A DNA stretch of 64,000 nt, taken from IMG/VR virus record IMGVR_UViG_3300045988_126355, one strand, 5' to 3'. Positions 1 through 36,899 of the stretch are shown in pieces. The stretch is from a virus. The position numbers and the translations under genes are program-made. Below the pieces are notes generated by a model. It worked only from the letters and a program-made list of their open reading frames with translations, was not told the DNA's origin and did no database searches. Numbering within the stretch: position 1 is the first letter of the stretch; each line of letters opens with the position of its first letter.

Positions 1-50
1 GTTTATGTGATGGGAGAGATATGGGAAAGAGGTTTATGTGATGGGAGAGA
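1..50. repeat. 19-bp perfect direct repeat gtttatgtgatgggagaga at 1-19 and 32-50
   Basis: Read directly; followed by C-rich tracts (cctcccgcccccg, ctcccccgcaccccc). Confidence 0.8.
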
Positions 51-80
51 GGGGGTACCTATCACGAACCTCCCGCCCCC

Positions 81-134
81 GAAACGCGTTTTCTCCCCCG
101 CACCCCCTTCGCTGGAAAACCGGAAACGCGTTTT
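81..134. repeat. Direct repeat gaaacgcgtttt (81-92, 123-134), each with an internal aacgcgtt palindrome
   Basis: Read directly. Confidence 0.7.
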
Positions 135-155
135 ACCTCAAACCCACAAACTCTC

Positions 156-233
156 TGATTATCAATCACTTATTTAAATTATTGATAATCAATGTGTTAT
201 TATAACCTATTGATTATAAGCCACTTAAATAAG
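156..233. promoter_or_regulatory. Nested inverted repeats: tgattatcaat (156-166) / attgataatca (181-191) and cttatttaa (169-177) / ttaaataag (225-233); likely protein-binding site or origin element
   Basis: Perfect 11-bp and 9-bp inverted arms; the tgattatcaat motif recurs at ~2356-2366. Confidence 0.45.
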
Positions 234-467
234 AATATATCCTACATATTAATGTACGCGTGTAATACTGCTCTTGTGTTTTTTTGTAACTTACTGATAA
301 TCAGATAATAGAATCGAAATTAATACAAGTTAACAAAAAAAATATAGCATATATATATGTAATATTGATAAATGTCGTATATTTGCGTCGTGATCGAGAG
401 AGATTACGAGTTAACATAGTGAACCTATATAGTGTACCCGTTGGGCTGGCTATATATGTATCTGTAA

Positions 468-1070
468 TTGCCTGCGTTGTGGGTCATTAATTTGAATATC
501 ATTTGTTTAACAATTAAAATATATTGGGATATGATTACGAAAAAAAATGTAAACAAACTACAGAATGCCGTTATCAAAGAAAATGCTGCAAATTTGGTAG
601 GTGCTGTTAAACTGTACAACGCTCTATTTGCTAATGGAGCTGATCTAAAGGCTATTTGCAAGGCTTTGGAAATACCGGCAGAATACGCCGTAAAGGTTGC
701 AGCCCTCGCCAAGGATAAAAAACGCCTGGTAGCCGTGTGTAGCCAAATGTTACCGAAAGTTGATAATACCTTTGTTAAATTTGCTTTATACTCTAAAGTA
801 TATAAGGATACCAATGCGGACAAAGAAAAAGGAATTGAAGCTAAAACGGCTGATTGGTGCGCTGAGAATGTGGTTTACGGTAGCGAATATAAAGCATTTG
901 GTTTTACTACTGCCGAATCATTGGAGAATAAAAAAAGTACTAAATGGTTGGTAAAAGAAACCAACGAGTACAAATCTACTTATGTGGCTGTTAAGATCAA
1001 ATCTTATTCTATTCGCACTGTGGCAAAGTGTGTAAGTGAATACCTCGCACATGAAAGCAACCAGCAGTAA
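468..1070 (+). CDS. hypothetical protein (200 aa; true start may be the internal Met at ~532)
   Basis: Long ORF, first gene of the plus-strand block. Confidence 0.5.
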   Translation: MPALWVINLNIICLTIKIYWDMITKKNVNKLQNAVIKENAANLVGAVKLYNALFANGADLKAICKALEIPAEYAVKVAALAKDKKRLVAVCSQMLPKVDNTFVKFALYSKVYKDTNADKEKGIEAKTADWCAENVVYGSEYKAFGFTTAESLENKKSTKWLVKETNEYKSTYVAVKIKSYSIRTVAKCVSEYLAHESNQQ

Positions 1071-1567
1071 CAAGGCACGGAGAGCGCCGTTAAGCTCTCC
1101 AAAGGTTTGACGCGTACCGTTAAACGCGTCTGTACGCCGTTGTCAGTGGGTGCACGTCCCGCGTATGCTTTAGACTGAAGCTGACAAAATAGAGAGTTAT
1201 TTTACATATTGGAGATAGATATACCGTTGCCCTTGCCGTTGGCAATTAAAGGGCTGGTATTACTGCATGGACTATCCGAATAGGTATAGTTTATGTTAGG
1301 TATGTGATTACAGTTTGGAAAACATGCCGTTGTACGAGGTTTATCTCCAGATCGAAACGTGTCTTACTTGCTTACACGAAAAATAGAACAAGGCTGTAGA
1401 TTAAATTACAGGGTATAAACATGTAGCCTAACATGTAGGAACATGTTGTATCAAAACGCAAGGACACAATCGCCTTTATTTGTGGCTAAGTTGTGTAGCA
1501 GACGGAAAATATAATAACAACATAGTACGGGCCTGTACGCAAGAACTACGTACTAATTACGGGCTGT

Positions 1568-1631
1568 TGGTTGTAGCATAAAATCTCTATAGGATAGGAA
1601 TGCGCGTCCGGTTCGATTCCGGAGCAACCTC
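1568..1631 (+). ncRNA. tRNA-like element E1: 6-bp acceptor-like stem plus canonical T-arm (tccgg-TTCGATT-ccgga); too short (~64 nt) for a standard tRNA
   Basis: GGTTCGATTCC T-loop consensus at 1610-1620; 5' ggttgt (1569-1574) pairs with gcaacc (1624-1629). Lies at the 3' end of a 580-bp non-coding island, 23 nt before an ATG. Confidence 0.3.
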
Positions 1632-1654
1632 TAAATTATAAATAATATAATAGC

Positions 1655-1825
1655 ATGGAAAAGAAAGCAATGATCAACGCTTTAACTGAAGCGTTCAATA
1701 AATCTAAAAACAGTTGCGTAAAAATAACATTGCGTAACTATATCGAGACGGTGGAAACATTGAGCGAAAGTGAGTACAAAGAGGCGGAAGGTTTCTATAT
1801 TGAAGCACTTAACCGCTGGAGTTAA
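1655..1825 (+). CDS. small hypothetical protein (56 aa, MEKKAMINALTEAF...)
   Basis: ORF below the track threshold; translated by hand. ATG lies 23 nt after E1. Confidence 0.35.
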   Translation: MEKKAMINALTEAFNKSKNSCVKITLRNYIETVETLSESEYKEAEGFYIEALNRWS

Positions 1826-1847
1826 TCATAATTAAAGCATAAAGAAA

Positions 1848-2054
1848 ATGGAAAGGAAATTTAAATCTCATATGGTAGACGTCCGCGGTCTGTCCAGGAA
1901 AGAAGCTAAAGAAAAGCGGAAAAGAGCGTATCGGGAATTTATGTTGTATCGTGATCTCAAAGAAGCGTATCATGCCGATACAGGAAAGGACAAATGCAAG
2001 CGTAAAGTTCATACATCACGAACATACGTGAAAGAAAACATAAACAGTATTTAA
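1848..2054 (+). CDS. small basic hypothetical protein (68 aa)
   Basis: ORF; K/R-rich. Confidence 0.4.
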   Translation: MERKFKSHMVDVRGLSRKEAKEKRKRAYREFMLYRDLKEAYHADTGKDKCKRKVHTSRTYVKENINSI

Positions 2055-2060
2055 ACAGGA

Positions 2061-2093
2061 ATAGGGTTGTTCCGAATATCGGAGTAGCCCTAT
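2061..2093 (+). terminator. hairpin atagggt...(loop)...gccctat followed by ttt
   Basis: 8-bp stem immediately after the stop at 2054. Confidence 0.35.
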
Positions 2094-2155
2094 TTTCGTA
2101 TCCTACTCTTTCTATTTACGGGTAGGTATTCTGAGAGTGAACGGCGGACGTGGAC

Positions 2156-2250
2156 AAAATTGGTCTAAAACGAAACAAAAATAAGGCCATTCGGATATAA
2201 TGCCGGTATTTTGTCTATATCATGTCGTTAAAATTGGTCTAAAACGAAAC
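2156..2250. repeat. 21-bp direct repeat aaaattggtctaaaacgaaac at 2156-2176 and 2230-2250
   Basis: Perfect copies 74 bp apart in a non-coding region. Confidence 0.8.
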
Positions 2251-2253
2251 TTG

Positions 2254-2298
2254 AGGCGGTTTTCTGACCCAAAATAGGGTGTCGGATGCCGCCTTTTT
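2254..2298 (+). terminator. ggcgg...ccgcc stem followed by ttttt
   Basis: GC stem plus T-run; the loop is long (~29 nt) with an inner gaccc/gggtg pairing. Confidence 0.35.
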
Positions 2299-2772
2299 CA
2301 TCTCTATGGATTGAAAATCAGGCTTATTGTATTTTTCTTAAAAATAAGGTATGCTTGATTATCAATTAGTTAGGTTTTATAATACCCGTATTTTTGGACA
2401 TACTTATTGTAATTTTTTTATTTTATGTGGTGGTTTTTATTAGTATCTGACCTGTATTTTTTATCGGTTGGAGTAAGGTCTATGTTAGAGTACGGACCAG
2501 ATCAGTATAATATCGTGATGGTTTTTTGCTTTTCGTTTCTGGCTTTGATTATAGGTCTGAATATCTATCTTGATAGGAGGAGCAGGCGGTAGGGCGTGGG
2601 CTGAAGGCTCTCTATTCTCTCTATGGAATGATATTATCTCCAAATCCCCCATACTCCATGCCAGAGTATAAGCTTGTAGCGCTCTCCGTATGCCTGTAGT
2701 GAGGCCGAGAGCGCAGGTTCTATGCGGGAAGCCGGAGGATTAGCCGGGGTTGGAGAGGGGGAGAGGGAGGGC

Positions 2773-2924
2773 ACTCTCTTCCAACAAAATTCAACTCTCT
2801 TCCAACAAAATTCAATAGATCAGAGCTTTAAAACTCTCTTCCAACAAAATTCAATAGATCAGAGCTTTAAAACGGCATTTTGTAGTTTCTTCCAACAAAA
2901 TTAAGACTTACAGCGTTTTTAAAA
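2773..2924. repeat. Tandem array: 39-bp unit ctctcttccaacaaaattcaatagatcagagctttaaaa repeated twice (2795-2833, 2834-2872) flanked by partial copies
   Basis: Read directly. Preceded by a GA-rich tract ggggttggagagggggagagggaggg at 2745-2771. The 60-aa ORF here is only a read-through of the repeats. Confidence 0.85.
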
Positions 2925-3011
2925 CAGTATTCTGTAGGTAAGAGTTAAGGACTGCATTATGTGAGTATTTTTTTTTCAATCGGAATGTTTAACAATTAAA
3001 ACATAAACAAC

Positions 3012-3272
3012 ATGAACGTATATGACTTTGCGCCTGACTTAGATTTGAGTAAGGAGGTAGAAGGTTCTATTTTTGGGGTGAAAGGAATAGAAGGTAGTGA
3101 TGGTATAGTATATGCTAAGGTAGTTAGCTGTGAAGAAGTTAAGGATTACAGTTGTGATAGGTGTATTTTTTATGATTGTTGTAAAGATACATGTTTGTTA
3201 TCGCGTAGTGATAGTTGTATAGATGGAGATTGGATTTGTAGGTACGAACAGGCTGCCATAGAGGGGGAGTAG
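3012..3272 (+). CDS. small Cys-rich protein, member of a C-D-R-C-I-F paralog family (86 aa)
   Basis: Motif SCDRCIFYDCC; paralogs at 4853 and 26105. Confidence 0.5.
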   Translation: MNVYDFAPDLDLSKEVEGSIFGVKGIEGSDGIVYAKVVSCEEVKDYSCDRCIFYDCCKDTCLLSRSDSCIDGDWICRYEQAAIEGE

Positions 3273-3379
3273 GCGGCGCCTTGGGCTAAGGCCTGCGGTT
3301 GTAGGTGGAACGTAGGTCGGAGCAGAGCCGGAACAGTTTATTGTGGAACTAAAAAAAATAAAAAGGAGGAGATAGCGAT

Positions 3380-3460
3380 ATGAAAAAGGCATTTAAGATA
3401 TTTTCTATTATGTTTGTCATAGAAATAGTGCTGATAGCTATTTTAGATGCTATGGCGTAA
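3380..3460 (+). CDS. putative 26-aa hydrophobic micropeptide MKKAFKIFSIMFVIEIVLIAILDAMA
   Basis: Strong SD aaaaggaggag 8 nt upstream of the ATG; single TM-like span. Confidence 0.3.
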   Translation: MKKAFKIFSIMFVIEIVLIAILDAMA

Positions 3461-3502
3461 GTGAGAAAAATTTCTTCATTAATTTTCTTATGCTTTAGAC
3501 AG

Positions 3503-3532
3503 AATGCTCCCATCTGCGAAGATCGGAGCATT
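3503..3532 (+). terminator. perfect 8-bp hairpin aatgctcc-(14 nt)-ggagcatt followed by tgctttat
   Basis: Read directly; sits 8 nt upstream of tRNA-like element E2. Confidence 0.35.
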
Positions 3533-3539
3533 TGCTTTA

Positions 3540-3584
3540 TGGGATTCATGGTGCGGTAGGCTGGTTCGATTCCGGCGATCTCAC
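3540..3584 (+). ncRNA. tRNA-like mini-element E2: 7-bp acceptor-like stem (tgggatt/gatctca) plus T-arm gctgg-TTCGATT-ccggc; only 45 nt
   Basis: Canonical T-loop; homologous to E3 (shared ...ggttcgattcYggSc.atctcacaMaaca). Ends 23 nt before the ATG at 3608. Confidence 0.35.
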
Positions 3585-3607
3585 ACAACATTAAAATAGG
3601 GAAGAAC

Positions 3608-4012
3608 ATGTTAAAAGAAGAATTTGAAGAACTGATTAAAAGGGAGGTAAACGAAAATCAGTATAAAAACATAGAAACGGCATACGAGGCTTTGCCGGAG
3701 TATATGGATAAGATGTATTTAGCAAATGCTATTTCAAATGATATTGGGAAAGCTATTAATGTCTTATCGTTTTTAGGATCGTATATAAGCGAGTTAATGG
3801 GTTCGATAATAATCGAAAGGCAAAAGGTGGAATCATGTGCCTATGATTTAATAAATAAATCGCATGAGGAGGATGACTTGAAAGCAAGAGAGATTGCCGT
3901 GCGATTAATAGGAGAGAGGGAAACAGTGGCATACACAGTAAAAGAAGGGCTGCCATTGTGGGAACAAGATAAAAAGTTTATAATAGAATTAATGAAGGAG
4001 GAAAGAAAATGA
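3608..4012 (+). CDS. hypothetical protein (134 aa)
   Basis: ORF; stop overlaps the next start (ATGA). Confidence 0.5.
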   Translation: MLKEEFEELIKREVNENQYKNIETAYEALPEYMDKMYLANAISNDIGKAINVLSFLGSYISELMGSIIIERQKVESCAYDLINKSHEEDDLKAREIAVRLIGERETVAYTVKEGLPLWEQDKKFIIELMKEERK

Positions 4013-4350
4013 AAGATGGTATTACATTACATCCAGAACACGGATTGAATCCGTCTATAGAAGTCTGCATGATATGTGGCGAAGAGATGGGGATTGCTTT
4101 ATTAGGGAATAACATCAAAGGGCAGGCGCCGCATCATATATGCACGGGAGAAATATGTGACAATTGCAAAAAGATAATAGATGACGGAGGTTGTTTTATT
4201 ATCGAAGTCGAGGATGGATCAGATCAAAAGAATCCGTATCGTACAGGGAGATATTGCGCGATAAAGAAAGAAGCAGCAAAGAAAATACTTGGACAGGAAC
4301 ATAGTGTTGTGTACATGGAAAAGTCTGCATACAGTCAAATAATACCATAA
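4009..4350 (+). CDS. zinc-finger-like Cys-rich protein (113 aa)
   Basis: CMICGEE...HHICTGEICDNCKK...GGCF cysteine pattern. Confidence 0.5.
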   Translation: MKDGITLHPEHGLNPSIEVCMICGEEMGIALLGNNIKGQAPHHICTGEICDNCKKIIDDGGCFIIEVEDGSDQKNPYRTGRYCAIKKEAAKKILGQEHSVVYMEKSAYSQIIP

Positions 4351-4364
4351 AAATAAAGAAGGAT

Positions 4365-4679
4365 ATGTTTACAAAAGAAGAGCGATTATTCATATGGAAA
4401 AAGGTATATGAGATGATTGATAGGTTAGAGGATGGGGAATACATATGTGTTGCGTTAAGAAATGTAGTGTTTATGTATCTCAAAACACATAAAAATATAT
4501 ATGAGTTTCGTTCAGACGAAATGGTGAGAATATATTTCCCGGAATTGGAGGAGAAGATAAGTATGGCCACAGAACCAGAGGAAACAAGAACGTTTTATGG
4601 GTGGTTTGGTTGTCTTAGTCCAGAAACGAAGGAGGTGAGGCTGAATATTGTGAAAGATATTATAAAAGAATTAGAATAG
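4365..4679 (+). CDS. hypothetical protein (104 aa)
   Basis: ORF. Confidence 0.45.
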   Translation: MFTKEERLFIWKKVYEMIDRLEDGEYICVALRNVVFMYLKTHKNIYEFRSDEMVRIYFPELEEKISMATEPEETRTFYGWFGCLSPETKEVRLNIVKDIIKELE

Positions 4680-4725
4680 TATTTTTGTTAATCTATTTTA
4701 TTCATCAAATTAAGTTTTGGGTTTT

Positions 4726-4755
4726 GGCATGTCGGTTCGTGAGGATAGACATGCC
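4726..4755 (+). terminator. perfect 8-bp hairpin ggcatgtc-(14 nt)-gacatgcc followed by tatttctgtatc
   Basis: Same position relative to E3 as the 3503 hairpin is to E2. Confidence 0.35.
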
Positions 4756-4771
4756 TATTTCTGTATCATAG

Positions 4772-4832
4772 AGGGATGACGCGGCGTGCCGGTGCGTATG
4801 TGCCGGTCCTGGTTCGATTCTGGGCATCTCAC
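4772..4832 (+). ncRNA. tRNA-like element E3: acceptor-like stem gggatg/catctc plus T-arm cctgg-TTCGATT-ctggg; 61 nt
   Basis: Homolog of E2 with a 16-nt GC-rich insertion; compensatory change at the stem base (G-C here vs U-G in E2). Ends 20 nt before the ATG at 4853. Confidence 0.35.
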
Positions 4833-4852
4833 AAACAATAAAACATAATTAT

Positions 4853-5101
4853 ATGGAAGTAATAACATTCGGTCCGAACATGGATTTGTCTTCTAAAGAA
4901 GCAGGGGATGTATTTAGATTAAAATTGTATGGCATAGAGTATGAGGTCAAAGTAGTTAGTGACGACGAAGAGCCTGTTATGTTCTGCAAAGATTGTATAT
5001 TTTTTAACAACACAGGACGGTGTTCACTCTCAGAATCGCAAGACTGGTGCTTAAAAAAGCAAGTTGTTTACTGTAAAATAAGACATGATGGGGGAATTTA
5101 A
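4853..5101 (+). CDS. small Cys-rich protein, C-K-D-C-I-F paralog (82 aa)
   Basis: FCKDCIFFNNTGRC motif; similar N-terminus to 3012 (F.PD/NMDLS.KE.G..F). Confidence 0.5.
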   Translation: MEVITFGPNMDLSSKEAGDVFRLKLYGIEYEVKVVSDDEEPVMFCKDCIFFNNTGRCSLSESQDWCLKKQVVYCKIRHDGGI

Positions 5102-5282
5102 TGCGAAAGACGCCAATTTCTTATGGCGTCAAATGGGTAAGATTGACGGGGTGATAGAAACTCTGAACCGTACCGGAGGAGAAATGCCGACAATTATAGC
5201 CGGAGTGCTAAAAAGAATAAGAGACGATATAGATAAGTTTGTAGATAATAAAACGAAAGATTATGAGAATATACAAGAATGA
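5085..5282 (+). CDS. hypothetical protein (65 aa)
   Basis: ORF. Confidence 0.35.
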   Translation: MMGEFNAKDANFLWRQMGKIDGVIETLNRTGGEMPTIIAGVLKRIRDDIDKFVDNKTKDYENIQE

Positions 5283-5496
5283 TATTATAAAGGCGTCAGC
5301 AATAAGCACCGGAGCCGACAGAGGTGTGTTGCTGTGTTCAATAACAGATTCAGGCTTTACGTCTATAGCGGGCGTAATATCGGCTGTTAAGGATAGGTTA
5401 CCAAACGAAGATCACAAGAAGATGGTTTTTGAAATCTTGAATGATACGAAAAAAGAGTACGGAAGATATAATAATTGCGGAACAAAAGTATTGTAA
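5263..5496 (+). CDS. hypothetical protein (77 aa)
   Basis: ORF. Confidence 0.35.
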   Translation: MRIYKNDIIKASAISTGADRGVLLCSITDSGFTSIAGVISAVKDRLPNEDHKKMVFEILNDTKKEYGRYNNCGTKVL

Positions 5497-5553
5497 TAAA
5501 GATTAAAAAACAATATGTTTATGTAATGTTAGTTTTTTCATTTTTATTGAAAG

Positions 5554-5590
5554 GAGCGCCGGCCTGTGAAGGTATGCGCTCTTTGTATTT
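5554..5590 (+). terminator. gagcgc-(16 nt)-gcgctc hairpin plus tttgtattt
   Basis: Perfect 6-bp GC stem plus T-rich tail after the stop at 5496. Confidence 0.5.
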
Positions 5591-5615
5591 ATATAATGCA
5601 TAAAACAATAATAAG

Positions 5616-5870
5616 ATGACAGATAATAACATAGATGTGAATATCGTACCTATAAAGAATGGTGCGAAACGTGTTGTGGTATCATATTACCATTATTCAC
5701 GCAAGGACAAAAATCACATGAGTTCCCAAACGGATTACGTGTGGGAAACAAAGAATGAAGAAATGTTTAAATACTTTGAGGCCAGGAGGACAAAAGTATT
5801 TTATAGTCAGATTCGTGCCATGTGTAGATTCTATGGCACGAAAAATGTACGTAAATACAAAAAGCTGTGA
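5616..5870 (+). CDS. hypothetical protein (84 aa)
   Basis: ORF. Confidence 0.4.
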   Translation: MTDNNIDVNIVPIKNGAKRVVVSYYHYSRKDKNHMSSQTDYVWETKNEEMFKYFEARRTKVFYSQIRAMCRFYGTKNVRKYKKL

Positions 5871-6676
5871 TATTAAAAACGACAACCAACGAGTTTTGTT
5901 TCATTAACGTAAGTTTCTATGAAACAATAGCGGATCCTCGCTATTTCTTTGAACAAGATTATGAAGAGATGCCGGAATATGAGGAAGAATCGGATTTTGA
6001 TTTTGATTCTTATTGCAATAAGTTTATTCCTTTTGTACAGGAATGGGCGAATGAGGTAAGTGAATACCTTTACGGATATGGCGTAAATAACATAAAGGTA
6101 ACATCGGTCGGACATCCAAAAGAATACAATTATGGTACCGATTGGATGAACGTAGAGGTAGAGTTTTGTGATGAATGGAGGCAAAAGATGTTATTTAACA
6201 TTGGTAAGATTGTCAATGATGATAAATGCAAGAAGTATGCGGAGGCTAATTACCGGTCGGTACCAGGATACATCTTTTTTGGGCCTGAAGATTTAAAGGA
6301 ATTTGAAGAGGAAATAATAGAAAGAAAGTCAGATTCGGGATATGATGTAACAATATTATTAAATATGTATCTAACTTTGGCTTTTGTAAAAGAATTTGGA
6401 TTTAAAGCCGGAGAAGCGTGGAGTAAAATAACAGAATACGCTTACGGATGTTTGTCGTATTCTGATTTTGCAACAACAGAGATGCTTATACCAGAAGGTT
6501 CGGAGCATTTATTCAAAGACATTTACACGGCAAAGGCCGACGAATTATATCATCATGTCCTGGATAAATTCGGATGGGCGTGGCGTGATCCGAAATATAA
6601 ATCAGAAACAGAATTATGCTCAATGTTAAAATGGGCAAAAGAAAAAGGCTTGACCATTGAAGAGTTAAGTATTTAA
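5867..6676 (+). CDS. hypothetical acidic protein (269 aa)
   Basis: Long ORF, ATGA-coupled to the preceding gene. Confidence 0.5.
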   Translation: MILKTTTNEFCFINVSFYETIADPRYFFEQDYEEMPEYEEESDFDFDSYCNKFIPFVQEWANEVSEYLYGYGVNNIKVTSVGHPKEYNYGTDWMNVEVEFCDEWRQKMLFNIGKIVNDDKCKKYAEANYRSVPGYIFFGPEDLKEFEEEIIERKSDSGYDVTILLNMYLTLAFVKEFGFKAGEAWSKITEYAYGCLSYSDFATTEMLIPEGSEHLFKDIYTAKADELYHHVLDKFGWAWRDPKYKSETELCSMLKWAKEKGLTIEELSI

Positions 6677-6703
6677 TTGTTAAACATAAGGCAGTAGTGG
6701 TGC

Positions 6704-6988
6704 GTGAGTATAGGTGCTGCCGTTAAAATATTTTATAAGATGAAAAAAGAAGAGATTCAAACTATTTTATACACAATCAAAGAAGGAGACAGTATTAAAA
6801 TCAAAGTACAAGACAAAAGTGAAGAGATAAGACTGCGGGATCATGTAAGAAGAGTACAGAAATACGGATACAGGTTTTGTTTGTCTCATTTACATGATGA
6901 AATTTTCTATCTGGAGAAGTTGAAAGAAGGGGATAAGGATAAATACTATAGAGTAATAAACAGAGGAAATGGAAAGACCGGAGTATAA
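6704..6988 (+). CDS. hypothetical protein (94 aa)
   Basis: ORF. Confidence 0.4.
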   Translation: MSIGAAVKIFYKMKKEEIQTILYTIKEGDSIKIKVQDKSEEIRLRDHVRRVQKYGYRFCLSHLHDEIFYLEKLKEGDKDKYYRVINRGNGKTGV

Positions 6989-7262
6989 TAAGCTACGCAA
7001 AATGGCTAAGACTACTCCAGGTCTGATAGTGGACGAGGTGCAAAACATGATGCGTGTATCGCTGTATGATAATGGGGAACTTAAGAAGGTGGTAGTAGTA
7101 ATGAAATGCGATTCTTTTTTACAGTCAAAAAGTAACATAGAAAAGATAATGTTATTATCATCTTCTATAGAAGATAGAAAAAACAAAGAAAAAAATAAAA
7201 CAAAATCAGAAAATGAACAGAATAACAAAAATAAGAGAAGAAATAGGAGGAAAACAGGTTGA
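6969..7262 (+). CDS. hypothetical protein with strongly basic C-terminus (97 aa)
   Basis: ORF; tail NKNKRRNRRKTG. Confidence 0.35.
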   Translation: MERPEYNKLRKMAKTTPGLIVDEVQNMMRVSLYDNGELKKVVVVMKCDSFLQSKSNIEKIMLLSSSIEDRKNKEKNKTKSENEQNNKNKRRNRRKTG

Positions 7263-7596
7263 TTTGACCTTTTACGGGCGCTTTTGCAGCCTTATCGAAG
7301 GTGATAGGAAGATAATACTAAGGGCAATAAAAAACGGTCGTAAGAAGGGCGTAATTGGGGCCATTCAGCCTGGGAGACATGATAGAATTTGGACCACATG
7401 GTCTGTCGCTTTTGATGATCTGAAGGTAGGGGATACGGTAGAGTTCAGTACATCTGGAAAATACAATCCCGGATTTCATGCTACGGAAAAGTATGTAGGG
7501 TGTGTAGAATGGATAAAAGGATCGGAATGTGCGATAAAAACCGGTAAGGGAATAGCAGTAGTATTAATTAAACACGTAGAAAGGATAGTAAAATGA
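7213..7596 (+). CDS. hypothetical protein (127 aa), possibly ASCH/PUA-like
   Basis: ORF; weak by-eye resemblance only. Confidence 0.4.
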   Translation: MNRITKIREEIGGKQVDLTFYGRFCSLIEGDRKIILRAIKNGRKKGVIGAIQPGRHDRIWTTWSVAFDDLKVGDTVEFSTSGKYNPGFHATEKYVGCVEWIKGSECAIKTGKGIAVVLIKHVERIVK

Positions 7597-7877
7597 TGGG
7601 GTTGAGAGAATTTGTAGAACTTTTTGACAAGAATGAAGTAAAGAACTTGTTTAAAGCGTTAGATTTATGTATGGAATATGTAAGATTAGATTTACATGTG
7701 TTTAATGTAGGAGCTCATGTAACATGTTCATACAGTAATGATCTTGAATCGCTTTCACAGGCAGAAGGTTGTAATGTGAATATGATAATAGAGGTGCCTC
7801 GCTTATTCGAAGCGTTCATGGAATACGCTTCACCGGAAATGAAGTTGTATTATGAAAAACTAACAGAGACAGTATAA
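7593..7877 (+). CDS. hypothetical protein (94 aa)
   Basis: ORF, ATGA overlap. Confidence 0.4.
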   Translation: MMGLREFVELFDKNEVKNLFKALDLCMEYVRLDLHVFNVGAHVTCSYSNDLESLSQAEGCNVNMIIEVPRLFEAFMEYASPEMKLYYEKLTETV

Positions 7878-7878
7878 T

Positions 7879-8352
7879 ATGAAAGAGGAAGTAGAACGGA
7901 TAAAGAGGTTGGTTGGCATAGATCATAATAGATGGGAGCAGCCTTGTACATGTGATAAATGCAAGAACATGTGTGAGGTTCCTTGTATTGGTACGCCAAA
8001 AGACATAGAAGCCATCATAGATGCCGGATATGCTGACAGGCTAAAAGAGACAATGTGGATGGTGGGGTATCTTGCAGTGAAAGAAAAACCAATAGCGATG
8101 ATCCAGCCAACAGAGAAAGACGGGTGGTGCGTGTTCCGCCGGCCAGACGGTCTCTGCGAGCTGCATGACCGCGGACTAAAGCCGACCGAAGGAGTTCTGG
8201 CCTCTTGTAAGATGATTGAAGAAGACAATGTTCCAACATATGAAACATCTGTACTTAGAGCAGTAGCTCATGAGTGGGTTAAGGTGGAGAACTTCGCAAC
8301 TATAATGAGAGTCGTTTTTAAATACTTGCATGAAAATGAACGTGGAAAATAA
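7879..8352 (+). CDS. putative YkgJ-family zinc/iron-chelating (CxxCxxCC-type) domain protein (157 aa)
   Basis: CTCDKCKNMCEVPC N-terminal cluster and GWCVFRRPDGLCELHDRGLKP...C resembling the UPF0153 G.C.F...dg.C.iY..RP..C pattern. Confidence 0.4.
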   Translation: MKEEVERIKRLVGIDHNRWEQPCTCDKCKNMCEVPCIGTPKDIEAIIDAGYADRLKETMWMVGYLAVKEKPIAMIQPTEKDGWCVFRRPDGLCELHDRGLKPTEGVLASCKMIEEDNVPTYETSVLRAVAHEWVKVENFATIMRVVFKYLHENERGK

Positions 8353-8740
8353 ATTAGACAAAGTGGTTAAGATCCTAAAAGAAAAAGGATTTGTAGTATA
8401 TAGAAAGGGCGGGAAGGAGCCAGGTGTGTTTTACGCCAAAGAAGGTGACAGTCGAATAGGATTCGTTTATCCTAACAACGGATATATATACGACAGGATA
8501 AAAATATGGTCTTTTTCAAGAATGTACAAACCACATAAGAAAACCGGATCTTCGTGCTTAATGTGTGTCAGCGACGAATTTACGATAGAAAATGCGATTA
8601 AGAACATAGAGGATAGACTGTGGGTGAATTACATAAAAGACGGTAACAGAAAACGACCAGAAGAATATAAAAATATAAGAGAATTTGTTGGTAGCTTCAC
8701 TAAATTCTACAGCTCTGTAGAATTAGTTGAAGTAAAATAG
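8330..8740 (+). CDS. hypothetical protein (136 aa)
   Basis: ORF. Confidence 0.45.
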   Translation: MKMNVENKLDKVVKILKEKGFVVYRKGGKEPGVFYAKEGDSRIGFVYPNNGYIYDRIKIWSFSRMYKPHKKTGSSCLMCVSDEFTIENAIKNIEDRLWVNYIKDGNRKRPEEYKNIREFVGSFTKFYSSVELVEVK

Positions 8741-8761
8741 TTTTCCATGTAAGTTAGTTAC

Positions 8762-8798
8762 CGGCACTGGTCTGCGAAGATAGGTGCCGTTTTTTTTA
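8762..8798 (+). terminator. rho-independent terminator cggcac-(16 nt)-gtgccg plus tttttttt
   Basis: Perfect 6-bp GC stem followed by T8, just after the stop at 8740. Confidence 0.6.
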
Positions 8799-8818
8799 TT
8801 CAAGAAAAGAGGACAAAT

Positions 8819-9070
8819 ATGGAGAAAAGAGACAAGAAGATGCCTTACGAGGTAGTCATACAGGAAAGAAAAAGAGTGGATTTGTACGGTAACGTAGTGT
8901 ATTATATCCATTGGTTTGATAAATATGGGTACAATATCACAAACGAATGGAAATTCTGGAGCAAGGGTCCGAAAAAGAAATACGATAGAGTTAATCGTTA
9001 TCTAACGGATAGTTGGTTGAAGGAATACTGTGGGAATAACGATTTAAAGATAAGGAGAATAAAGGAATGA
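8819..9070 (+). CDS. hypothetical protein (83 aa)
   Basis: ORF. Confidence 0.4.
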   Translation: MEKRDKKMPYEVVIQERKRVDLYGNVVYYIHWFDKYGYNITNEWKFWSKGPKKKYDRVNRYLTDSWLKEYCGNNDLKIRRIKE

Positions 9071-9582
9071 AAAAGATAAAAGTAGACAAAGTGATATTAT
9101 ATTACATGGATCGGGTAGACCCTGACGGGAACCTATACCGGTTCTATGTATATAAAGACATGGCATCTGAAATAGAATACTTTTGCACGGAAGAGACAGG
9201 TAATATGACTATACCAATCGGAGAAGGAGAGTATGTCAAGATCGTACCAAAAAAAATAGAGAAAATACCGGTAAGGGGATATAGGAAGCTTACTGGAATA
9301 TGGAATCGTGAAACATGTAACGGGAAGGGATGGTACAGGCTTTTTAATTATTTCAAATACAAGCCGACCCTATGTTATTTTAAAAAAGCGGGACATGATG
9401 AAAATGGGAACACAAGATACGAAATATCATTATTTAATAACATTATAAATGTGACAAGGTATTTCAATCTGTGGAGAATGAAGCCAGGAAAGTATGTTAT
9501 GGTAACAAACGAGTGTGGTGCCTTGGATGTTATAAAAGAAAAATTCGATAACATAAATATAGTGGAATATGGATCTGAATGA
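9067..9582 (+). CDS. hypothetical protein (171 aa)
   Basis: ORF. Confidence 0.45.
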   Translation: MKKIKVDKVILYYMDRVDPDGNLYRFYVYKDMASEIEYFCTEETGNMTIPIGEGEYVKIVPKKIEKIPVRGYRKLTGIWNRETCNGKGWYRLFNYFKYKPTLCYFKKAGHDENGNTRYEISLFNNIINVTRYFNLWRMKPGKYVMVTNECGALDVIKEKFDNINIVEYGSE

Positions 9583-12942: not shown

Positions 12943-14004
12943 ATGAACAATTCAATGGTCGCTCACTTGTGGGCTCATGAACAAGAAGAATCAGCATCAG
13001 GGGGCAATTTCTTCTTTGAAGGTACAAGTATTTATTCTTATGGGCATCACTTTGAAGTCGGGAGAATAGTAAAAAACAAACAAGGGAAGAAAGCATACCT
13101 GATAAATGAAGATTATTATTCTGTTACCACGAGCAAACATCAATGCTATGTTCGTAATGCGATACCAACTTGGGCAATGGTTTTCAGTGTAGGGGATAAT
13201 ATATCGGATACTGGTAATATGAGGTTTGTTGCCAGCAAACTGGAATCAATTAAGAAGTCTATTGAAAAATACAAAAGAGCTAAAACAGAATTATCTTATA
13301 CAGATATTTGGGGCGCTTTTGGGAATATGATGGATTACATTCAGTTCTTTAACATGGGGACTGCTAAGAGTATCCTTAAAAAGAGTGCTAATGATTGGCT
13401 TGGAACCAATCATGAATTATCCAAGAGCGGAGATAGTATCAAGCGTAAGCACGTACATGAATTAAAACGCATCTTTCAAATTTTATTAGATCATCAAGGA
13501 TTAAAAGTGTTAGGGACCGTAAATGTGATTGTTGATGAAGTTTGCGGGGAAGGTACATGGATTAAGTATTCAGAAAGATCTGAAAGATGGAGAAAGGGTG
13601 AGGAAGAAAGAGAAAGAATAAAATTAGAGAGATTAAGAAAGGAAGAAGAAGCCCGTTACAAGGATTTTGATGAAAAACTGGAAGAGTGGAAGTCAGGAGA
13701 AATCAATTTCTTGAATACACCTTTCTATATTCCTGGTGAAAAACCTAACGCCTGGATTCGTATAAAAGGAAATATTATTGAGACAAGTAAACAGATAAAG
13801 ATTGGAATAGCAGAAGCCAGAAAACTGTGGCGGGCTGTGTCGGCAATGCACCGGGGCGCCGAGTTTCGGCACGGTCTGGTGGAGGACATCACCGGTCACC
13901 AGTGGAGTCTAAATCGGTACGAAAACGATTTGCTAACCGTTGGATGTCATAGGATAGCATATAACGAAATGGAGAGAATAGCAAAACAACTGGGATGGGT
14001 TTAA
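12943..14004 (+). CDS. hypothetical protein with central E/R/K coiled-coil (353 aa)
   Basis: Long ORF. Confidence 0.5.
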   Translation: MNNSMVAHLWAHEQEESASGGNFFFEGTSIYSYGHHFEVGRIVKNKQGKKAYLINEDYYSVTTSKHQCYVRNAIPTWAMVFSVGDNISDTGNMRFVASKLESIKKSIEKYKRAKTELSYTDIWGAFGNMMDYIQFFNMGTAKSILKKSANDWLGTNHELSKSGDSIKRKHVHELKRIFQILLDHQGLKVLGTVNVIVDEVCGEGTWIKYSERSERWRKGEEERERIKLERLRKEEEARYKDFDEKLEEWKSGEINFLNTPFYIPGEKPNAWIRIKGNIIETSKQIKIGIAEARKLWRAVSAMHRGAEFRHGLVEDITGHQWSLNRYENDLLTVGCHRIAYNEMERIAKQLGWV

Positions 14005-26104: not shown

Positions 26105-26302
26105 ATGGAAAAGAAGGAATTTAAAGTAGGAGAAGTGTTTACTGCCGGACTTGTAAGATTAAAATGTGTGGAAGGTGATACATGCGATAGGTGTATATTT
26201 GAAAAATACAATTATTGTTCATGTACAGACATGATTATTGGTCCATGTGAACATATTGATAGACAAGATAACAAGGATGTTATTTTCATTAAAGCTGATT
26301 AG
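26105..26302 (+). CDS. small Cys-rich protein, third C-D-R-C-I-F paralog (65 aa)
   Basis: GDTCDRCIFEKYNYCSC; strong SD aaggaggg upstream. Confidence 0.5.
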   Translation: MEKKEFKVGEVFTAGLVRLKCVEGDTCDRCIFEKYNYCSCTDMIIGPCEHIDRQDNKDVIFIKAD

Positions 26303-26304
26303 GT

Positions 26305-27018
26305 ATGTACATCAATTTCAGACAACTTGCAGCATCAGACATGACTCCTAATGATCTTGCTAATCTTCTTGCCATAAGACAGAAGGATACGGTTATGATC
26401 GAAGCCATGCCGGAAGAAGATGCTGGGAGGTATATAGAGCTTGGCCTGGTTGAGAAATTAAAATCAGGCGTGATGAGATTGACCAACAAAGGAACGTCTT
26501 TTGTGAATTATATAGAGACACCGGAGATGACAGACGAGGTTCTGGAAACGTTGAAGATTATGATAGGAATGTACGAATCATATTCAAAAGACATAGGTGT
26601 CAGCAGAAAAGAAGCGGAATCCAGATTGTGTTGGTTTATGGGTAACACCTCATTCAAGAAAGAGGTCATACTTCAGGTAACGGAATCTTATATAGCAGAG
26701 TCAGGAGATTATACAATGAGCTTATGCAACTTCATATGGAAACCGCCTTCTCAGGCTTTTTCAGTCCATATGAACCTTAAAAATTCAAAGCTCTTTGACT
26801 TAATAGCTGAAAAATTTAAGATCGCTACCGAGCCTTATTTGGAGTCTAAGAAGAATAAGGAAATGGATTGGTTGTTTGCCGTATCTAAATTGCCTACGCC
26901 GCCAGCTAAAGGCAATCCGGATTATTTGTTTACCGGAAGTTCTGAAACAGACAAAGAGCGATTGAAAAACATAAAAACATACTTATTTAACAAAATTAGA
27001 AAGCAATGGAAAAAGTAA
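26305..27018 (+). CDS. hypothetical protein (237 aa)
   Basis: ORF. Confidence 0.5.
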   Translation: MYINFRQLAASDMTPNDLANLLAIRQKDTVMIEAMPEEDAGRYIELGLVEKLKSGVMRLTNKGTSFVNYIETPEMTDEVLETLKIMIGMYESYSKDIGVSRKEAESRLCWFMGNTSFKKEVILQVTESYIAESGDYTMSLCNFIWKPPSQAFSVHMNLKNSKLFDLIAEKFKIATEPYLESKKNKEMDWLFAVSKLPTPPAKGNPDYLFTGSSETDKERLKNIKTYLFNKIRKQWKK

Positions 27019-35716: not shown

Positions 35717-36899
35717 TACCATGAGAGTGTTAAGTTTATTTGACGGAATGTCATGTGGTCAAATAGCGCTAAAAGAAATAGGGATCACACCTGAAGTATA
35801 TTATGCATCAGAAATAGATAAGTTTGCTATTAAACAAACGCAATTAAATTTCCCTAATACGATACAAGTAGGAGATGTAAGGGATTTGAATGTAGAAGAT
35901 CTTGGACACATAGATCTTATTTTAGCCGGCAGCCCATGTACGGATATGTCCTTTTCTGGAAAAAGAAAAGGGTTGTCTACCGTAGAAGGAATAGAAATCA
36001 AATCACTTAATGAGTATCTTGAACTAAAAAAACAAGGATTTGAGTTTACCGGTCAGTCTTACTTATTCTGGGAGTTTATTCGTATTTTGAATGATGTAAG
36101 AAAAACTAATCCTGATGTATTATTTCTTCTTGAGAACGTTAAGATGGGAAAGAAATGGGAGCCGGTATTTGATGATGCTATAGGGTGTAAAGGCAATCAT
36201 ATTAATTCAGCACTTGTTTCCGCTCAAACCAGGAAACGTATTTATTGGACTAATATTCAAGGCGGCATTATCCCTCAACCTAAAGACGAAGGTTTGACTA
36301 TAAGTGATATAGCGGAATATGAAGTAGATGAAAAATATTACTTATCTGAAAAAGTTTTAAACAATTTAGCTTTTCACTTAAAAAGAAATCACGACAAGGG
36401 AAATTATTATGGAGCTAATATTAAAACAAAAGATGAAAAATCCAATACTGTTACCGTAAAGGGTAAATACATGTACGATCTTATTTGTGTAGCAATGAGA
36501 GGTAGGAATCCAGAAAAACCTACATGTAGAGAATCTGGTCTTAAAACAGTTCAGATGATTGAATTTAAAAACGATGGAAAATCCAATTGTCTCACAACAG
36601 TTCAGAAAGATAATCTTATTTTCCAAATACCAAGAGGATTTAACAAAGGTGGATTTCATGAAGATAAGGCTCCAACATTATCTTGTAATTCATATGATAG
36701 AAACAATTTTATCATACAGAGAGCATTACATGGCGATTTCAGAATAAGAAGATTAACCCCTACAGAGTGCTCCAGGTTACAGACTGTACCAGATTGGTAT
36801 AAATGGGAATGCAGCAAAACCCAACAGTACAAGATGTTGGGAAACGGGTGGACTATTAAAGTTATTGAACATATACTTAAAAGAATAAAAGAATCATGA
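35700..36899 (+). CDS. DNA (cytosine-5)-methyltransferase (399 aa; start may be Met ~35721)
   Basis: Motif I LSLFDGMSCG; motif IV GSPCTDMSFSG; motif VI ENV; motif VIII QTRKR; motif X GNGWTIKV. Confidence 0.9.
   Translation: MKNVYNTMRVLSLFDGMSCGQIALKEIGITPEVYYASEIDKFAIKQTQLNFPNTIQVGDVRDLNVEDLGHIDLILAGSPCTDMSFSGKRKGLSTVEGIEIKSLNEYLELKKQGFEFTGQSYLFWEFIRILNDVRKTNPDVLFLLENVKMGKKWEPVFDDAIGCKGNHINSALVSAQTRKRIYWTNIQGGIIPQPKDEGLTISDIAEYEVDEKYYLSEKVLNNLAFHLKRNHDKGNYYGANIKTKDEKSNTVTVKGKYMYDLICVAMRGRNPEKPTCRESGLKTVQMIEFKNDGKSNCLTTVQKDNLIFQIPRGFNKGGFHEDKAPTLSCNSYDRNNFIIQRALHGDFRIRRLTPTECSRLQTVPDWYKWECSKTQQYKMLGNGWTIKVIEHILKRIKES

Follow-up and report, generated by a model that had tools for sequence, protein, structure and literature searches.

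Three diverged copies of a small cysteine-rich domain in a gut crAss-like phage, with amino acid variation concentrated around the cysteines in two of them

The specificity regions of DNA methyltransferases diversify in conflict with host restriction, and phages also encode small acidic anti-defence proteins, among them the Ocr and ArdA-type DNA mimics and the anti-CRISPRs. To our knowledge, most genes of crAss-like gut phages are without known function, and we know of little on how these phages cope with strain variation in their Bacteroidales hosts. One system of variation has been described in the lineage studied here: phage crAssE-Sib and its genus mates carry a complete diversity-generating retroelement (DGR) cassette, which targets a receptor-binding protein (PMC11054128). 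That paper, the only one found on the lineage, deals with the DGR, repressors and polymerases, and searching it by term gave nothing on the small genes that are the subject of this report.

These genes lie in a window of 64,000 nucleotides from a virus (IMG/VR record IMGVR_UViG_3300045988_126355), in which an initial annotation had proposed a family of small paralogous cysteine-rich proteins. All three open reading frames (ORFs) are found where they had been placed, on the + strand: gene A at 3012–3272 (86 residues), gene B at 4853–5101 (82 residues) and gene C at 26105–26302 (65 residues, a minimal version of the domain). The cysteine motifs are likewise borne out, with CDRCIF at residues 48–53 of A (3153–3170), CKDCIFF at residues 45–51 of B (4985–5005) and CDRCIF at residues 27–32 of C, and A and B do have an N-terminal pattern in common (DFAPDLDLSKEVEGSIF and TFGPNMDLSSKEAGDVF, respectively). 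A is an ORF call that is recorded as a hypothetical CDS in phage csAssE-Sib (OR575929.1). When every six-frame ORF of 35 residues or more in the window was scanned, the C-x-x-C-I-F core turned up in A, B and C only, and this motif scan together with three profiles found no further paralogue in the window.

By sequence, A and B are clear paralogues, and C is a distant relative. A and B are 35% identical (BLASTP E = 2e-8), and comparison of their profiles gives a probability of 96.8% (E = 2.4e-10). The position of C is less obvious from pairwise comparison: BLAST aligns only 22 residues of C and A, around CDRCIF (E = 0.003), finds no significant similarity between C and B, and a profile built from A and B reaches C only at E = 1.4. 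These results are what would be expected if C were unrelated to A and B, and CDRCIF were shared by chance or as a generic CxxC knuckle. We consider this very improbable, given three observations. In profile–profile comparison, the C and A/B families match at 93.6% (E = 2.2e-7); the 54 aligned columns begin at the GxxF hairpin and extend as far as the C-terminal strand, so that the likeness is not confined to the knuckle. A profile made from C-like proteins only, run against the 792 six-frame ORFs of the window, has B (E = 3e-4) and A (E = 0.025) as its two best non-self matches, the third-ranked ORF following at E = 1.2. Finally, the total spacing of the cysteines is the same in all three proteins. 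Thus, the profile–profile comparison and the C-only search uphold the proposal of three diverged copies of a single small cysteine-rich domain: A, B and C are true paralogues, and the domain, of about 55–65 residues, is apparently phage-specific.

From its N terminus onwards, the domain consists of a hairpin (G-x-x-F ... h-K-h-V), then a C-x-x-C-[IV]-F knuckle, two lone but invariant cysteines and, to close, a strand (V-[IV]-[FY]-x-K). The cysteine pattern is C-x2-C-x7-9-C-x7-9-C; between Cys2 and Cys4, the intervening residues number 9 + 7 in A, 8 + 8 in B and 7 + 9 in C, giving the identical total spacing in the joint alignment, where G, K, C, C and F do not vary. Entropy maps and alignments place the amino acid variation in the loops around and between the cysteines, with the scaffold residues and the termini conserved. 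The variable positions are residues 24–26, 33–37, 39–45 and 49–52 of C and residues 41–46, 49–50, 57, 60, 64–66, 70–71 and 75 of A. All members tested are acidic (pI 4.2–5.5; 4.15 for A). Of the structure predictions that had been advised for each copy, those for A and C were run, using alignments of 40–42 sequences of the C and A families, and the AlphaFold2 models are of low confidence (pLDDT 44.8 for C and 54.2 for A). Foldseek searches with the A model against BFVD and the PDB returned matches at E > 2 only, a result that, with a low-confidence model, carries no weight either way.

Searches of Pfam, NCBIfam and PADLOC gave no match for A, B, C, the fused form of B described below or distant members, and sequence searches of the PDB with both family profiles gave chance matches only (E of at least 0.3). 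The sole library match is PHROG 33085, a family with unannotated function, which C reaches at E = 4.5e-4 (21 bits) and distant C-like proteins reach at E-values from 2e-5 to 9e-13. Neither A nor B matches it directly. C is therefore probably a member of PHROG 33085, and A and B would form a sister subfamily that is reached only by profile–profile comparison. Only 45 matches at E ≤ 1e-3 were found among 1.84 billion representatives, and 313 in a set of 5.8 billion proteins, where none of the matches listed is named beyond 'hypothetical protein' and many of the long-contig matches among those listed lie on contigs of 80–155 kb. A search of 185,579 bacterial and archaeal genomes with two patterns found no relatives. 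For alignment there are at least 300 C-like and at least 590 A/B-like sequences. Homologues are present in cultured Bacteroides thetaiotaomicron phages, among them BT638P2_00006 (OP172720.1, 3035–3247), and in the crAss-like phage cr108_1. The domain is also used in a modular way, in a triple-repeat protein (P0254), in a 207-residue fusion in cr108_1 and in fusions of B.

Gene A is core in the phage clade: when loci were selected by a neighbouring gene, all 80 of them covered it. Its dN/dS is 0.20 over the whole gene, and the two halves of the protein differ sharply. Codons 1–38 (3012–3125, +), which encode the conserved N-terminal half (M.V..F.PD.DLS.KE.G..F ... VYAKVV) and have low column entropy, are under strong purifying selection (dN/dS 0.05, pS 0.18; 12 non-synonymous to 20 synonymous variants). 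Codons 39–78 (3126–3245, +) form a variable half that contains the conserved cysteines 48, 51, 61 and 69; here dN/dS is 0.56 overall and 1.21 in codons 39–48, the variants number 54 non-synonymous to 14 synonymous (Fisher P = 8e-5 when compared with the N-terminal half and 5e-6 when compared with the flanking genes), and pi is 0.10–0.20 against a local median of 0.06. The initial annotation's statement that two of the three genes lie just downstream of repeat or tRNA-like elements is borne out in part: A begins about 90 nucleotides downstream of a 39-nucleotide tandem repeat (2793–2921, +). No other stretch of the window varies as much as this repeat, and metagenomic contigs frequently end there.

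Gene C likewise belongs to the core of the clade, with 78 of 80 loci carrying it. Its hypervariable core, codons 23–56 (26171–26272, +), comprises the conserved cysteines 27, 30, 38 and 48 and the loops between them. The core has a pi of 0.30–0.33 in two independently chosen sets of loci, for which the medians are 0.036 and 0.046, and ranks among the top few of the window's roughly 2,300 diversity bins. The alleles fall into three classes, of 65, 68 and 69 residues, which differ by indels and are about 55% identical in nucleotide sequence in the core, against 96–97% in the 600-nucleotide flanks. Their frequencies are intermediate (46:31 and 19:21), and linkage around the core decays within about 0.6–0.9 kb; a single study supplied many of the IMG/VR contigs, and hypervariable regions can give rise to chimeric assemblies. 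The core alleles are thus deeply divergent and recombine freely with the rest of the genome. Within classes, dN/dS is 1.50 in the core and 0.07 in the last nine codons (57–65). Codons 23–56 carry 41 non-synonymous to 8 synonymous variants, the upstream gene 1 to 76 (Fisher P = 3e-16 for the core against the pooled flanks). The non-synonymous density of the core is more than 200-fold above that of the flanks, and the synonymous density is 0.24 per codon (8 in 34 codons), against 0.38 in the flanks (76 in 200 codons). Because the excess is non-synonymous only, it reflects selection and not a local mutator. These results fit the earlier suggestion of a diversifying accessory function, with a localized excess of amino acid change in the cysteine-rich part of A and C and with a dispensable gene B.

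Relaxed constraint has to be weighed here, since a dN/dS of 1.5 in the C core (41:8, compared with a neutral expectation of roughly 3.3:1) is near 1 and not significantly above it, so that loss of constraint could explain part of the signal. On this account, the genes would be dispensable 'moron' ORFs drifting towards loss, and their variation neutral decay. Some C singletons replace scaffold cysteines, and about one-third of the C protein clusters are truncated or frameshifted, although in a hand tally these hold only about one-tenth of the member sequences; B is missing from most relatives, and A has indels in 25 of 80 loci. Drift of this kind sits poorly with the strongly purified termini of A and C, with ORFs that remain unbroken in 77 of 78 loci for C and in 53 of 55 for A, with divergent C alleles kept at intermediate frequency and with a Cys/Gly/Phe scaffold that every allele class retains, as do phages with an identity of only about 39–49%. 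We regard it as unlikely. Fast change of the loops in A and C suggests, instead, a binding surface in an arms race.

The DGR of the genus offers another source of hypervariability, and we considered whether it, or some other local hypermutation, could act on these genes. In the complete csAssE-Sib genome, however, gene C and the variable half of A each occur once, and the window contains no repeat matching the C core or the A variable half. The absence of a second, template copy and a synonymous density in the C core that is not raised argue against DGR mutagenesis, as do the allele indels noted above and the variable C codons, which change at several base types. With neither a template repeat nor an adenine-specific pattern affecting non-synonymous and synonymous sites alike, we rejected the identification of these genes as DGR targets, and we give hypermutation almost no credence as the cause. 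A separate diversity hot spot at 36530 was likewise dismissed as a DGR variable repeat, as it lies in a C5-cytosine methyltransferase gene and has no nearby repeat.

Gene B differs from A and C in being a dispensable accessory cassette. It is present in only 20–36% of close relatives. With ORF5085 (5085–5282, +; 65 residues, no cysteine), a +1-frame ORF that overlaps B at its end, it shares an insertion/deletion cassette of about 409 bp (4847–5255, +) with the junction microhomology AATAAAAC. The cassette is absent as a clean gap, with 35–36 nucleotides replacing 444, in 59 of 74 relatives; of 77 loci selected by a neighbouring gene, about 28 cover it. Counts of non-synonymous and synonymous variants in B, from a small sample, show no contrast between its halves. 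ORF5085 has no family match and, by eye only, is probably helical. In some relatives (P0105, P0106, P0126, P0143 and P0182), B and ORF5085 are fused as a single protein of 139–143 residues, and a distant homologue of 135 residues (P0244) is likewise a fused form. Among the loci fetched, the 82-residue form of B occurs in 31 and the fused form in 8; the G-run at 5091–5095 has five Gs in the split form and four in the fused form. Since it is fused to B both in relatives and in a distant homologue, ORF5085 is likely to be a functional partner of B.

Directly upstream of B, which starts about 10 nucleotides after it, is an element resembling a tRNA T-arm and acceptor (4809–4843, +). Similar T-arm-like copies are found at 1608–1642 and 3561–3595, each directly preceding a gene that is variably present or absent among relatives, and the motif GGTTCGATTCYGG occurs three times, against 0.07 expected. 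The 'tRNA-like elements' of the initial annotation are thus real sequence motifs, but their reading as tRNAs finds no support: ARAGORN at default settings predicts no tRNA gene in the window, and Rfam yields no tRNA match at E ≤ 1 in positions 1–6000. In intron mode, ARAGORN proposes a tRNA-Val(gac) with a 20-nucleotide intron at 4725–4832. Folds predicted for these elements and for the GC-rich sequence flanking A are either weak or do not improve on those of shuffled sequences (z = −2.5 to +0.07).

Our best explanation of the whole, which is tentative and to which we assign a probability of about 0.45, is that A, B and C are paralogues of a phage-specific four-cysteine domain whose loops form a putative binding surface under diversifying selection. 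The four cysteines would bind one zinc ion and thereby hold two loops in place; the loops would provide the surface that binds a partner varying from one host strain to another, for which the likeliest candidate is a protein of the host, for instance a defence component or takeover target; and the alleles would be kept by diversifying or frequency-dependent selection. The domain may be a binding module that is portable: in B, it is joined to a short partner domain downstream, by fusion or by translational coupling, and in other phages it is present in triplicate or fused to unrelated domains.

A different kind of partner is suggested by gene neighbourhoods. C-like genes lie two genes after DnaB in the window, where the neighbour is a DnaB-like helicase, and in L250; elsewhere, they adjoin helicase and nuclease genes or methyltransferases, and in one phage a Tad2-like gene lies 2.4 kb from a homologue. 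As functional hints, these neighbourhoods are weak. The recurrence of C-like members in replication and DNA-modification modules would suit small zinc-finger regulators or replication accessory factors, with the replisome or the nucleic acid of phage or host as their binding target; variability would then reflect co-evolution with a phage-encoded site or partner and not with the host. The acidity of the proteins, including a net charge of −11 for A, makes them more likely to bind protein than nucleic acid. Moreover, a scan of 23–45 kb for a partner locus linked to C allele class found nothing above background beyond about 1 kb; the class is unassociated with any locus in this interval, DnaB and the adjacent genes included, and the protein encoded by the upstream neighbour is 100% identical across all three classes. 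We therefore consider a replication role quite improbable and retain the host-directed binding surface as the preferred reading.

In its most specific form, which we consider possible but doubtful, the host-directed binding surface would make these proteins a class of phage 'mini-binders' not recognized before: zinc would staple a scaffold of some 60 residues, and the loops between its cysteines would be diversified by selection and short-tract recombination, without a DGR, each allele engaging or neutralizing a different strain-specific host protein (for example, a defence component), and with paralogues and effector fusions extending the repertoire. The analysis identifies an apparently phage-only domain family with three copies in the genome of one gut crAss-like phage. 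In C, a segment of about 100 nucleotides reaches the variability seen at the peak of the phage's DNA methyltransferase gene, without a DGR, which makes it a candidate host-interaction surface. The C allele classes could serve as markers for matching phages to hosts in metagenomes, and the homologues in cultured B. thetaiotaomicron phages provide an experimental route. Should an anti-defence role prove true, the anti-defence repertoire would gain a new fold and mode; should the variation be mere drift, it would still provide a clean example of uneven constraint within very small phage genes.

Several known systems invite comparison. The proteins resemble zinc ribbons and other small four-cysteine zinc modules in their size, in four invariant cysteines that include one CxxC and in a β-rich predicted secondary structure. 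A classical zinc ribbon, however, has two CxxC/CPxC knuckles, whereas here there is a single CxxC knuckle and Cys3 and Cys4 are isolated, 7–9 positions apart, so that the initial label of 'zinc-ribbon-like' is not supported; by sequence, no Pfam zinc-binding family or PDB chain matches the A/B/C family. The matches of C and C-like proteins to PHROG 33085 cover the CxxC...GxC...RxD...VIF part, but this names the family without explaining its function. With Ocr, the ArdA-type mimics and the anti-CRISPRs, these proteins share small size, acidity, variable presence and a location among small unannotated genes, but not sequence similarity to any such Pfam family. The C5-cytosine DNA methyltransferase of the window (ORF 35700–36899) provides a parallel within the same genome, as it has a peak of pi of 0.34–0.37 at 36530–36620 in an otherwise conserved gene; judging from its position, the peak probably lies in the target-recognition domain. 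Unlike A, B and C, the methyltransferase belongs to a known enzyme family and has a known role. Finally, the DGR variable proteins with a C-type lectin fold, which include the receptor-binding protein of crAssE-Sib in the same lineage (PMC11054128), similarly carry a short hypervariable segment on a conserved scaffold. What differs here is that there is neither a template repeat nor a synonymous excess and that the alleles differ by indels: the variation comes from selection and recombination, and not from retro-mutagenesis.

The three small cysteine-rich genes A (3012–3272, 86 aa), B (4853–5101, 82 aa) and C (26105–26302, 65 aa) are plus-strand ORFs, present where the initial annotation had placed them, and their sequences define one domain family with three paralogues. 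The C-x-x-C-I-F core is limited to these three in a motif scan of every six-frame window ORF of at least 35 aa, and three different family profiles found no additional paralogue in the window. A and B are clearly paralogues at the sequence level (BLASTP: 35% identity over 71 residues, E = 2e-8; profile–profile comparison: 96.8%, E = 2.4e-10). Pairwise, C is only marginally similar to A and B. Using broader family profiles built from database homologues, the A/B profile aligned with the C profile over 54 columns (93.6% probability, E = 2.2e-7); the aligned span starts at the G-x-x-F motif, takes in C-x-x-C-[IV]-F and cysteines 3 and 4, and ends with the C-terminal V-[IV]-[FY]-x-K strand. Independently, a profile without any A or B sequence placed B at the top (E = 3e-4), followed by A (E = 0.025), among 792 six-frame window ORFs, the next being at E = 1.2. 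Spacing of the conserved cysteines is C-x2-C-x9-C-x7-C for A, x8/x8 for B and x7/x9 for C, which sums to the same total in each. The profile alignment, the ranking and the spacing thus extend the similarity beyond a generic CxxC knuckle. The family has a conserved scaffold and variable loops.

The 200-aa neighbour of C served as bait to fetch 80 related loci, which keeps the sample free of bias by C itself; this neighbour has 100% protein identity in all of them. Nucleotide diversity is 20–35% at 26180–26270 versus 1–5% across the surrounding 5.6 kb, a peak reproduced in a second, independent locus set, with the reservation that short-read assemblies may include chimeras in hypervariable regions. 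In a scan of the whole 64 kb (about 2,300 overlapping 60-nt bins, five locus sets), only two stretches, an intergenic tandem repeat and a segment of a DNA methyltransferase gene, surpassed it, and one bin, at 41570, equalled it. C has three allele classes (65, 68 and 69 aa), all of which keep the Cys, Gly and Phe scaffold and are identical or nearly so at both ends (22 N-terminal and 9 C-terminal residues); between classes, nucleotide identity is about 55% in the core (codons 23–56, 26171–26272) and 96–97% in the 600-nt flanks. Class frequencies are intermediate (46:31 and 19:21), association with flanking polymorphisms is down to background within about 0.6–0.9 kb, and no long-range association was found from 23 to 45 kb. 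The polymorphism in C recombines and is probably driven by selection. Within the 65-aa class, dN/dS is 1.50 for codons 23–56 and 0.07 for codons 57–65, and non-synonymous to synonymous counts are 41:8 in the core, 1:76 in the upstream gene and 25:78 in the downstream gene (core versus pooled flanks, Fisher P = 3e-16); these and the values below are pairwise Nei–Gojobori estimates or simple variant counts, which model neither phylogeny nor recombination. Synonymous density in the core is not raised, which rules out local hypermutation and leaves selection, or lack of it, as the cause. A DGR template is ruled out, as the gene C sequence occurs once in a complete related genome.

Gene A has a dN/dS of 0.20 over its whole length, which marks it as a real gene, with 0.05 in codons 1–38, 0.56 in codons 39–78 and up to 1.21 in codons 39–48. 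Among loci selected via a neighbouring gene, the N-terminal half carries 12 non-synonymous and 20 synonymous variants and the Cys-rich half 54 and 14, a non-synonymous excess (Fisher P = 8e-5 half versus half; P = 5e-6 versus flanks). Nucleotide diversity is only mildly raised, and the variable half, like gene C, has no second copy in the complete related genome. The main rival explanation for the variation in A and C, relaxed constraint, still stands, given that dN/dS does not significantly exceed 1 and that some variants are truncated. Weighing against it are strong purifying selection elsewhere in the same genes, retention of the scaffold across distant phages and alleles at intermediate frequency. 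A single study supplied many of the IMG/VR contigs, whose independence is therefore doubtful. We infer instead that the loops would form a binding surface whose partner differs between host strains. Since all members checked are acidic (pI 4.2–5.5), a protein rather than nucleic acid would be bound, and the biological role may be anti-defence or takeover, as suggested initially.

Upstream of A lies a 39-nt tandem repeat (2773–2921, plus strand; two exact copies and degenerate ones), where variability is higher than anywhere else in the window (π 0.25–0.42). About 24 of 80 IMG/VR contigs end 80–411 nt upstream of A, indicating either a point at which assembly breaks or structural variability of the region. 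GC-rich islands (2650–2800 and 3250–3350; 58–60% GC, surroundings 27–38%) flank A, and neither folds better than shuffled sequence. The stretch directly after the stop codon of A (3252–3300) is near-invariant among relatives (π below 0.02). Length polymorphism of a G-run (3262–3266) gives the tail ...EGE-stop or, in many database variants, ...EGGVGGALG-stop. Between A and B, a 113-aa Cys-rich ORF (4009–4350, plus strand; CMICGEE...CTGEICDNCKK) matches PHROG 11852 (no assigned function). This core gene of the clade is unrelated to the family by all three profiles.

B and the overlapping 65-aa ORF5085 (5085–5282, plus strand) make up a cassette of about 409 bp, cleanly missing in 59/74 relatives of one set and covered in about 28/77 of another, whose junction bears the short microhomology AATAAAAC. 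A run of 5 G at 5091–5095 splits the two ORFs in the window; 4 or 7 G fuses them. B is accessory, and fused in some genomes: other genomes encode a single protein of 139–143 aa with junction sequences of several kinds, and the distant homologue P0244 (135 aa) is likewise fused, so that B and ORF5085 probably work together. The halves of B gave no significant variant contrast in a small sample. Plus-strand elements resembling a tRNA T-arm/acceptor (GGTTCGATTCYGG) lie at 1608–1642, 3561–3595 and 4809–4843 (3 found versus 0.07 expected), each about 10–30 nt upstream of a clean presence/absence cassette gene (absent in 11/56 relatives for ORF 1655–1825, 30/78 for ORF 3608–4012 and 59/74 for B with ORF5085). 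The tRNA-like elements noted earlier are thus real as a recurring motif, but not as tRNAs called by ARAGORN at default settings or by Rfam; ARAGORN in intron mode places a tRNA-Val(gac) at 4725–4832. Such elements could represent decayed tRNA genes or mark the boundaries of cassettes.

Window positions 2500–9500 are 93.7% identical to csAssE-Sib (OR575929.1, human gut, 151 kb). In this epsilon crAss-like phage, every gene of the matching stretch is annotated as hypothetical. The paper on this phage (there spelled crAssE-Sib) describes a DGR cassette whose target is a receptor-binding protein (PMC11054128); in the parts consulted, no mention of the small genes was found. Pfam, NCBIfam, PADLOC and PDB sequences yielded no relative of A, B, C or distant members, the sole library match being PHROG 33085 (no assigned function), which C matches at E = 4.5e-4 and distant members at up to 9e-13. 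With a joint profile, HMMER run exhaustively over 1.84 billion representative proteins gave only 45 matches; a C-like profile used in a word-indexed search gave 313. Among the matches listed of the latter, none has a name other than 'hypothetical protein', and many of the long-contig ones sit on contigs of 80–155 kb. No member was found in 185,579 bacterial and archaeal genomes scanned. Members occur in cultured Bacteroides thetaiotaomicron phages (for example, BT638P2), adjoining a Dmt methyltransferase; in crAss-like phage cr108_1, as the N-terminal part of a 207-aa protein between tRNA genes; in the homologue P0254, as three tandem copies within one protein; and, on further phage contigs, within replication or DNA-modification surroundings amid many small unannotated genes. 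On an unrelated phage contig (logan:ERR11566359_11453), a 235-aa gene (1936–2643) with Sequestin/Tad2-like Pfam matches lies 2.4 kb upstream of a C-like member, a weak hint of an anti-defence neighbourhood.

Elsewhere in the window, a diversity peak at 36530–36620 (π 0.34–0.37) falls within a C5-cytosine DNA methyltransferase ORF (35700–36899, plus strand; PF00145, E = 9e-40). The target-recognition region is the probable site of this peak, which has no repeat nearby and so is no DGR target. Just upstream, an ORF (34854–35411, plus strand) has a dATP/dGTP diphosphohydrolase N-terminal domain (PF18909, E = 5e-26), and the pair hints at a DNA-modification or nucleotide-pool module. Local peaks also lie at 41570–41630 (π about 0.31) and 13171–13711 (π 0.19–0.24), inside large ORFs at 39251–45697 (minus strand) and 12943–14004 (plus strand), respectively. 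An acyl-carrier-protein-like gene (27006–27257, plus strand; PF00550, PHROG 5934) has an unusually high non-synonymous to synonymous ratio among close relatives (35:15).

AlphaFold2 predictions are of low confidence (pLDDT 44.8 for C; 54.2 for A, all-beta with five strands), and fold searches with a low-confidence model as query returned no match. The four cysteines would bind zinc. The term zinc-ribbon-like, used in the initial annotation, finds no support in these models and searches, and the sequences of the A/B/C family lack a second knuckle, a defining feature of zinc ribbons.
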